NCBI RefSeq assembly: GCF_018977255.1
Contig: NW_024704742.1
Location: 31,312,001-31,376,000, forward strand
Length of the DNA: 64,000 nucleotides
Reading direction: 5' to 3'
DNA from: Callorhinchus milii
Lineage: Eukaryota
The notes below the pieces were generated by a model. That model had not been told where the DNA came from. It was given only the letters and a program-made list of their open reading frames with translations, and ran no database searches. A program made the position numbers and the translations under genes. Numbering within the stretch: position 1 is the stretch's first letter; each line of letters opens with the position of its first letter. Shown here piece by piece: positions 1-1,024 of this stretch.

Positions 1-346
1 TGGTTTGGAACAACCGGGAAAAAGGATAGAAACTGAATGGAGAGTGAAAGAGTGGAAAATGCAGGAAAGTGAAAAGAGGTGGTGAGTTGGTGAAATGGAT
101 TTGTGTGACAGGGGTGCCTAAATATGACTAGGGATACTCACATCTGAAAGTTTTAGGAGAAATAGCAATACAACAATTCCACCTCGGCTCAGTGCCACAG
201 GTCTAGATGCATTTGAATAATATATTAATATGATGTATTCTGACCAATGTTTTATGAGTTTCTCCCGGTGTCCTAGCCAACAATCCCCAAAGTATAATGG
301 TCATCCATTTTTTTCACTGGGACGTGGCTGTGTATAAATTAGTTGC

Positions 347-571
347 AAACAAAAACAGAAGTTGCTGGGAACATTCAATAAGTCAGGCAGCATCTATGGA
401 GAAAGAAAAGTGAGTCAACATTTCGGGTCCACGACCCTTCATCAGAATGTGGACCCAAAGCGTTGACTCACTTTCCTTTCTCCATAGATGCTGCCAGACC
501 TGCTGAGTGTTCCGAGCGACTTCTGTTTTTGTTTTCAGATTTCCAGCCTCTGCAGTATTTAGTATTTGTTT
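347..571. mobile_element. Palindromic non-autonomous element (Penelope-like terminal-repeat derivative) with 14-bp TSD
   Basis: Arms 347-432 and 449-534 are imperfect reverse complements; tataaattagttgc at both 333-346 and 572-585. Confidence 0.8.
412..448 (-). ncRNA. Minimal hammerhead-ribozyme-like motif, probably decayed
   Basis: Minus strand reads CUGAUGA-A-GGGUC-GUG-GACCC-GAAA-UGUUGACU: both core boxes flank a 5-bp stem II. Confidence 0.6.
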
Positions 572-1024
572 TATAAATTAGTTGCGTTCGCCTACAAACT
601 GCACAGTCACTACATATTACAGTAAATCTTGTGAAACGCTTTGAGACATCCTTCCAACATGAAAGACGCTGTATTGATTGCAAGGATTATCTTTTTTTTC
701 TCATTAAAATCCACTTGCCCTTCCTTGGCCCAACCACATCATTTGTGCAGATATTTTCAGTGTTAATAGTGTCTCTATACAGTAGTTACCTGGGTACATA
801 GCTTGTTCAGCCCTAATGATATCTACTAAATGTATCCTCCATATATTGTAGTAACATAACAGCAAGACCATTCATTCTTCTGCTGGTAGCACTCTCACTC
901 TGAGTCAGAAGGTGGAAGGTTCAAGCTCCAAATTTACAAATCAGACTCTTTAAAGCCTTCGCAATACTGGAAGTTTAATTCCACTTAAAGTGCTTTTACG
1001 TGGTCACAAAGAAATATGGAACAC

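Follow-up and report, generated by a model that had tools for sequence, protein, structure and literature searches.

A high-copy fold-back insert of Callorhinchus milii as a probable miniature Penelope-like element insertion with a minimal hammerhead motif

We analyzed a 64,000-nt stretch of the Callorhinchus milii genome (assembly GCF_018977255.1, contig NW_024704742.1, positions 31,312,001 to 31,376,000 of the forward strand), hereafter the window, near the start of which lies a 225-bp fold-back insert (347–571). This insert is probably a minimal, noncoding insertion made by the machinery of Penelope-like elements (PLEs), consisting of two head-to-head copies of a short PLE segment. The segment would span from a few bases upstream of a minimal hammerhead ribozyme (min-HHR) motif to the point at which PLE reverse transcription starts. 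A sequence-only reading of the window had described a noncoding, ribozyme-bearing hairpin retroelement mobilized in trans, and we find that interpretation essentially right, although mobilization in trans is conjectural. An autonomous PLE encodes a reverse transcriptase (RT) and a GIY-YIG endonuclease; the insert, being noncoding, does not, and is a PLE derivative rather than an autonomous member.

Results

The insert is bounded by a target-site duplication

The flanks of the insert belong to an interspersed repeat resembling a short interspersed nuclear element (SINE), and an exact 14-bp direct repeat, TATAAATTAGTTGC, bounds the insert on both sides (333–346 and 572–585). A genome search with the repeat of the right flank gave 2632 first-look candidates, of which 40 were scored (identity 79–88%). 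Two copies of the repeat run uninterrupted through the insertion point, and each holds one homolog of the duplicated 14-mer. This paralogous empty site indicates a true insertion with target-site duplication and, together with the direct repeat, bears out the earlier claim of a 225-bp insert inside a SINE. The inverted arms (344–432 and 449–537) are 89 nt each, 87% complementary, and separated by 16 nt, near enough to the arms of about 86 bp and the 16-nt loop first described. RNA of the 225-nt insert is predicted to form a single long hairpin of −135.8 kcal/mol (z = −17.6 against 200 shuffles). The parts of the insertion site are as follows.

250–332, no strand: upstream part of the host SINE-like repeat, aligning with two paralogs that are uninterrupted at the insertion point
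333–346, no strand: left copy of the 14-bp target-site duplication, an exact repeat of which the paralogs hold one homologous copy
347–448, minus strand: left arm, from the inverted repeat, an inverted PLE terminal unit without tail, its outer end being the "no-tail" start point
413–448, minus strand: decayed min-HHR motif, its architecture compared with traits given in part of PMC4209133 and its helix I partner taken from PLE copies
433–448, no strand: 16-nt hairpin tip, made of left-unit sequence that the right arm lacks (the center varies between copies)
449–534, plus strand: right arm, the terminal unit in direct orientation, starting 15 nt after C3 in the alignment of copies
535–571, plus strand: one-sided 37-bp "tail" beyond the no-tail end point, single-ended in hairpin copies
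572–585, no strand: right copy of the 14-bp target-site duplication, an exact repeat
586–712, no strand: downstream part of the host SINE-like repeat, from repeat family matches and the alignment of paralogs

The insert belongs to a large family of hairpin copies

The source assembly (991.5 Mb in 1762 contigs) was searched for relatives of the insert. The first look gave 4345 candidates, and every one of the 40 copies scored is close to full length (86–91% identity). These were aligned with 60 nt of flanking sequence; two of them (L018 and L020) are duplicates with identical flanks, leaving 39 independent copies. Homology ends abruptly at both ends of the insert, and the arms of the family majority sequence are perfectly complementary. 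The sequence that the earlier reading had restored by combining the two arms, GACCCGAAACGTTGACT, equals the majority sequence of the 40 genomic copies. The 37-bp extension follows the arm on one side only (majority sequence TCAGATTTCCAGCATCTGCAGTATTTTGTGTTTTGTTT), and exactly one such tail is present in each of 43 hairpin copies, namely the 40 together with L087, L091, and L093. Divergence from the majority averages 5.5% (range 1.6–10.5%; window copy, 7.3%), CpG transitions account for 55 of the 412 differences, and mean pairwise identity among hairpin copies is 90%.

Duplications were sought automatically with one mismatch allowed, a procedure that may over-extend them by 1 to 3 nt, and were found in all 40 copies. 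Among the independent copies, they measure 6 to 18 bp (median 13, commonest length 14), and the duplicated sequence is 71% A+T, compared with 59% for the window and 60% for the outer flanks. An A+T-rich target is a trait of PLE insertions. The earlier reading had taken the long duplication in the window as a sign of target-primed insertion and not of a DNA transposon; the variable lengths found here agree, and, taken with the asymmetric ends of the copies, fit target-primed reverse transcription.

Hairpins L002, L003, L010, and L027 lie at the same position of a SINE-like repeat, with similar duplications of ~13 to 15 bp and homologous flanks; this reflects either a hot spot in the A+T-rich part of the repeat or amplification of the repeat after it had been hit. 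The identity of hairpin and flanks between L018 (unplaced contig C43) and L020 (C1:32602058–32602674) is due either to segmental duplication or to duplication in the assembly. Four of 12 contig sets of uncertain RNA status were compared with the family at 85% likeness. Thousands of their contigs belong to it, and some continue past the arm, either into the tail or into sequence found upstream in PLEs; contigs of this kind carry no information on transcript ends, strand, or level and bear neither way on expression or cleavage. In the majority sequence, inspected by eye, the unit contains an ATG (in CCATAGATGCTGCC) that opens a stop-free frame to the end of the tail (window 485–571). A PLE of Anolis has its RT start sites within the open reading frame (ORF), in an AC-rich stem–loop (PMC11167929).

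The arms match sequence 3′ of Penelope-like RT and GIY-YIG frames

A Pfam search of the genome for GIY-YIG gave two places above the cut-off (L041 and L042), both with an RT-related frame upstream on the same strand. That the whole genome yields only two matches indicates that the model is insensitive to PLE endonucleases. This RT-related frame, of 401 aa, gave 99 genome matches when used as query, among them the 3-kb arrays of a tandem family described below. Among seven loci fetched around distant RT matches, six contain the arm (L080–L083, L085, and L086, not L084). In four of the seven (L082, L083, L085, and L086), RT, GIY-YIG, and arm follow one another in that order on one strand, the GIY-YIG portion having been placed by tblastn with frames from other loci (E values 2e-8 to 7e-4). 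The reverse complement of the left arm in the window aligns with this segment 3′ of the RT/GIY-YIG frames (L082, L085, L086, and others). The arm, which the earlier reading had proposed to seek at the ends of Penelope ORFs with RT and GIY-YIG, is thus found 3′ of the remains of such frames in these four loci.

PLE copies terminate either at …CTTCTGTTTTTGTT or 37 bp beyond it, after the tail. A tail of 30 to 40 bp bounded by two start points is a PLE trait, and the tail of the window insert (535–571) is such an interval, PLE copies ending at either side of it. The hairpins also have the inverted, adjacent, 5′-truncated copy of PLEs, and L082 is a long-bodied counterpart that displays the hairpin plan at full scale: an inverted arm without tail (6844–6753), ORF remains (5925–3819), and an arm with tail (3821–3685).

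The family carries a minimal hammerhead motif

On the minus strand, the earlier reading had noted CUGAUGA-A-GGGUC/GACCC-GAAA. We find this motif, CTGATGAAGGGTCGTGGACCCGAAA, at 421–445 as its single match in the window, with 0 expected from 100 shuffles. The wider decayed min-HHR motif has the following parts, all on the minus strand.

448–446: 5′ remnant of helix I
445–439: CUGAUGA box
438: bulged A
437–425: helix II, GGGUC-GUG-GACCC
424–421: GAAA box
420–417: positions 15.2 to 17, UGUU
between 417 and 416: predicted cut
416–413: 3′ strand of helix I, GACU

The majority motif of the family is GTT-CTGACGA-A-GGGTC-GTG-GACCC-GAAA-CG-TT-GACTCAC. It keeps CUGANGA, GAAA, and stem II, with the box as CUGACGA. 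Judged from these sequences, CUGACGA is the ancestral core, with N7, the variable core position, a C within CpG, and the CUGAUGA of the window is its product by CpG decay. The exact intact motif occurs at 434 sites genome-wide (224 forward and 210 reverse), compared with 0 for a reversed control pattern; a hand count of N7 in the first 100 of the 434 matches listed gave 68 with C, 29 with T, 2 with G, and 1 with A. Eight intact-motif sites sampled blind to context comprised three hairpins and five single arms. Hairpins with a longer center (L015, L032, L033, L037, and L093) carry the whole motif in both arms, which indicates that the structure is a single unit present twice in opposite orientations, the motif lying at the inner end of the unit. 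In L093 (C1:125631737–125632220), both motifs are intact, and the center holds an extra partial repeat of CCCCAGTT between the arms, suggestive of filler sequence or of a template switch where the arms join.

The CUGANGA and GAAA boxes with a perfect GGGTC/GACCC helix are intact, on either strand, in only 9 of the 40 copies, which points to decay of the motif after insertion, as in neutral DNA. In the window copy, two of the four helix I pairs are left (AUU versus GAC), position 15.2 has changed from C to U, and the right arm lacks the CUGANGA box and has its GAAA mutated to AAAG. We infer that the motif of the window copy is a decayed, inactive relic, carried as a passenger. Upstream of the core, PLE copies read …CTCTCCCTCCCAACATGCCCCAGTT, which supplies a 4-bp helix I, AGUU with GACU.

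Metazoan PLE min-HHRs have a G10.1–C11.1 pair, a palindromic 15.2–16.2, and a helix I of 4 to 5 bp (Cervera and De la Pena 2014, PMC4209133; this paper, PMC8557442, and the retrozyme sources discussed below are cited throughout for those parts of them that we used). The family has a helix I of this length, as AGUU/GACU in PLE copies and in L093, although not in the window copy. The majority sequence has the palindromic 15.2/16.2 without loop 3 (GAAA-CG-UU), of which C15.2 is lost in the window copy. An unpaired A after CUGANGA, preceding GGGUC…GACCC, provides the unpaired base between A9 and 10.1, and the G10.1–C11.1 pair is present in the motif of PLE copies. The ancestral motif accordingly agrees with all the sequence traits listed in that part of the source, and the likening of the motif to the minimal hammerheads with palindromic stem III at PLE termini was well founded. 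The published min-HHRs act as dimers with low activity in vitro; most occur singly and dispersed, and some form opposite-strand pairs (PMC4209133). The motif studied here resembles them in lying within PLE terminal repeats and in its massively dispersed solitary copies. It differs in its 5-bp helix II with a 3-nt loop, compared with 6 to 8 bp in the examples of that source, and in the spacing of paired motifs: in Schistosoma, min-HHR pairs on opposite strands lie 100 to 700 bp apart (PMC4209133), whereas here only ~50 nt separate the two motifs, where one of them has not been deleted. Unlike the published cases, the window copy is degenerate.

Folded in isolation, a natural motif (L088) can form helices I and II at −8.8 kcal/mol, compared with −9.6 kcal/mol for its minimum free energy fold. 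In hairpin RNA, the motif would be buried in a stem of ~90 bp.

An abundant tandem PLE family (L075–L079) was considered as the partner of the hairpins and rejected, as it shares no arm sequence. Its representative L075 (C1063:1–10000) forms 3-kb head-to-tail arrays on unplaced contigs, with 825-aa open frames that match RVT_1 (E = 9e-12) and have a GIY-YIG-like C terminus; further arrays are on contigs C888, C162, C269, and C235. About 70 nt before the ATG, L075 has the motif TTTTCAC-CTGAGGA-C-GGCTGC...GTGGCC-GAAAC-GTC-GTGAGAA. This shares the core, the bulge, and the CG palindrome with the arm motif, and both helices are different; the same architecture on different helices supports the arm motif as a true PLE min-HHR. 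A sequence search of the PDB with the 825-aa ORF gave 0 hits. The tandem family looks young, and the spacer of its arrays contains a CAG-rich microsatellite.

Hairpin arms share an inner limit

Both strands of the 43 hairpins were aligned to a natural PLE copy that includes 80 nt of upstream sequence. None of the 86 arms extends past −7, counted from C3. In 41 of 43 hairpins, the start of the longer arm falls in the interval −7 to +1, and in the remaining two it lies at +5 and +6; the shorter arm starts at +15 in 19 of 86 arms. Longer 5′-truncated single copies (L088–L090) extend further upstream, so the inner limit is specific to hairpins. The predicted cut, between GUU and GAC, is ~32 nt inside the arm and therefore does not define this limit. 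The arms may instead be run-off cDNAs of a short RNA with its 5′ end at CCAGTT. This sequence, CCAGTTC/CCAGTT, resembles the consensus of an initiator element.

The centers of the hairpins vary: inspection of the 40 copies by eye gave ~25 different junction forms. Both sequence subtypes of the unit include hairpins, L087 representing the other subtype. No diagnostic substitutions mark the copies with the +15 junction outside the center and the fuzzy 3′ edge.

Discussion

PLE insertions are described as having an inverted 5′-truncated copy adjacent at the 5′ end and a tail of 30 to 40 bp that is often single-ended (Craig et al. 2021, PMC8557442). The window element has this published structure in miniature, combining a tailed unit with an inverted unit, on the opposite side, that lacks the tail. 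It shares with canonical PLE insertions the adjacent inverted 5′-truncated copy, the tail at one end, and heavy 5′ truncation, and departs from them in that the body is reduced to the terminal unit, ~90 to 120 nt per arm, giving a bare hairpin at very high copy number. For the Anolis Poseidon PLE (PAc), both target strands are cleaved and extended in vitro, targets are A+T-rich, and RT starts at two adjacent internal sites, the interval between them being the tail (Frangieh et al. 2024, PMC11167929). The hairpin family resembles PAc in the two adjacent start points that bound its tail, in its A+T-rich targets, and in a hammerhead ~70 to 110 nt upstream of the start points. The evidence for PAc is biochemical and comes from another species and element, whereas the hairpin family is known from its genomic footprint.

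Two other classes of element invite comparison. Animal nonlong terminal repeat retrozymes are, like the insert, noncoding and hammerhead-bearing, and are thought to derive from PLE terminal repeats (PMC7229834; Li et al. 2026, 10.64898/2026.07.22.740005). They are head-to-tail tandem repeats with a hammerhead in each, of type I, and are tied to circular RNAs, whereas the window element is a single head-to-head pair with target-site duplications and has no such tandem arrangement. The second class shares the geometry of the insert with other enzymes. In twin priming by L1, the other target strand also primes synthesis, which leaves an inverted segment inside one insertion with one duplication. 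The hairpins are like such inserts in having an inversion and a single duplication; they differ in the class of RT and endonuclease, and L1 inversions do not fold back perfectly on the 3′ unit and carry poly(A) tails.

On the PLE reading, the right-hand copy in the window would have started at the outer of the two start points, thereby acquiring the 37-bp tail, and the inverted left-hand copy at the inner one, which would leave it tail-less. Staggered cuts in an A+T-rich target would give the 14-bp duplication. Both target strands may have primed cDNA synthesis, as they do in vitro for the Anolis PLE, with the two cDNAs joined at their far ends, and the sharp inner limit of the arms may reflect a discrete 5′ end of the RNA. 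More specifically, and with confidence that stays on the tentative side, we propose that the thousands of fold-backs are the in vivo footprint of two-sided target-primed reverse transcription of a leader RNA that begins at CCAGTTC, 4 to 7 nt upstream of the hammerhead. Each cut target strand would prime cDNA from one or the other internal start point of this short leader, and the two full-length leader cDNAs would then be joined head to head. The hairpins may be dead-on-arrival by-products of PLE integration and not a replicating lineage. A bolder variant holds that the mirrored arms place the RT entry site on both strands, making the hairpin the smallest self-sufficient template for PLE proteins.

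It is possible, if short of probable, that the hairpins are instead a self-propagating nonautonomous lineage, in which one or a few transcribed fold-back masters are copied whole, as RNA, in trans by PLE proteins. Mirrored arms would end each strand in an RT entry site and so define both ends, and the variable center would arise from skipping or deletion at the hairpin tip. A very high copy number beside few, broken partner copies speaks for such a lineage, as do the perfectly complementary arms of the majority sequence, the tight pairwise identity, and the identical +15 start, which fits descent from hairpin masters as well as it fits a hot spot. The many center junctions, the occurrence of hairpins in both unit subtypes, the same inverted plan with a long body in L082, and the difficulty of a ~90-bp stem as a template speak against it, as does the lack of any substitution that separates the +15-junction copies outside the center and 3′ end. 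Formation de novo is slightly ahead of master copies on account of the variable centers, the two subtypes, and the lack of junction-marking substitutions, despite the shared +15 start and the copy number. An active ribozyme element, whose hairpin RNA or dimers self-cleave as a step of the life cycle in the manner proposed for retrozymes and circular RNAs, is improbable. The ancestral motif does have all core boxes and the traits of PLE min-HHRs, the isolated L088 motif comes close to its minimum free energy fold with helices I and II formed, and cleavage of the Anolis PLE hammerhead is assisted by protein, indeed requires it (PMC11167929). However, few copies keep intact boxes with a perfect helix II, the window copy has lost half of helix I and position 15.2, the arms include the core with inner ends away from the predicted cut, copies are not in tandem, and the −135.8 kcal/mol hairpin would sequester the motif; for the Anolis element, moreover, cleavage is dispensable for insertion in vitro (PMC11167929).

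The hairpin shape itself suggests two further explanations. Selection for the fold as a hairpin RNA gene, a microRNA or siRNA precursor, is very unlikely. The fold is highly stable, and Rfam matches to plant and animal microRNA hairpins do occur at window 378–504, the best being MIR1507; its 37.2 bits compare with a gathering score of 73, and such matches, far below gathering, appear on both strands, as for any long hairpin. The copies, moreover, decay neutrally and are insertions with target duplications. Least credible of all is a miniature inverted-repeat transposable element (MITE) or foldback DNA transposon moved by a transposase, which the small size, long inverted arms, and abundance of the family bring to mind. 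Those elements have fixed-length duplications and symmetric termini, neither of which is found in the hairpin family: its duplications vary from 6 to 18 bp and its tail is on one side only, which together rule out a cut-and-paste MITE. Single arms and longer 5′-truncated copies also exist, and the arm corresponds to sequence lying 3′ of RT/GIY-YIG frames. We therefore regard the MITE reading as contradicted.

Several observations weigh against the PLE origin or against its details. The examination of arm-bearing loci covered seven loci, a small number, in which all RT/GIY-YIG frames are broken and no complete partner, having an open ORF and a unit at each end, is present. In a Pfam search with nine frames from the arm-bearing loci, RVT_1 appeared once, below the cut-off, and GIY-YIG never; as GIY-YIG goes unnamed by Pfam there, the PLE link rests on tblastn. 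Resemblance to the window copy guided the choice of the 40 scored copies, a sampling bias, and the context-blind sample of eight sites is small. That both strands primed and that the RNA began at CCAGTT are suggestions drawn from the genomic footprint, and the +15 start has, as noted, two equally fitting explanations. Finally, an Rfam scan (E ≤ 10) returned no hammerhead family among its seven matches. Rfam hammerhead models include a helix III hairpin, which min-HHRs lack, and we read this null result as a limit of the models for a loop-less helix III and not as a refutation.

How PLEs integrate is poorly understood, including the origin of their inverted repeats, the one-sided tail, and the role of the hammerhead. 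In the present family, little is left of the PLE insertion but two short arms and a tail, and its very numerous, cleanly duplicated insertions make it a useful natural resource for mapping where RT starts, how far inward the RNA reaches, and how the cuts are staggered. If two-sided priming is correct, it records the start sites, RNA 5′ end, and endonuclease stagger of a vertebrate PLE at base resolution and explains the long-puzzling inverted repeats of these elements. Min-HHRs, adjacent copies in inverted orientation, tails at one end, and paired start sites have all been published, and the finding by itself adds no new principle. We found no description of a high-copy fold-back mini-PLE in a shallow literature search made without supplements (those of PMC4209133 may list C. 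milii); the great abundance of bare hairpins in this genome, and their value as a footprint of two-strand priming, may be new. Such hairpins are easily misannotated as MITEs or microRNA precursors. The subthreshold microRNA-family matches in Rfam arise because the insert is a long hairpin, and false microRNA calls are likely for this repeat family.

A 32-nt core segment of the host SINE-like repeat is present in two diverged copies (78% identity) at 638–669 and 1325–1356, 687 bp apart, the latter indicating a second SINE-like copy just downstream of the insert.

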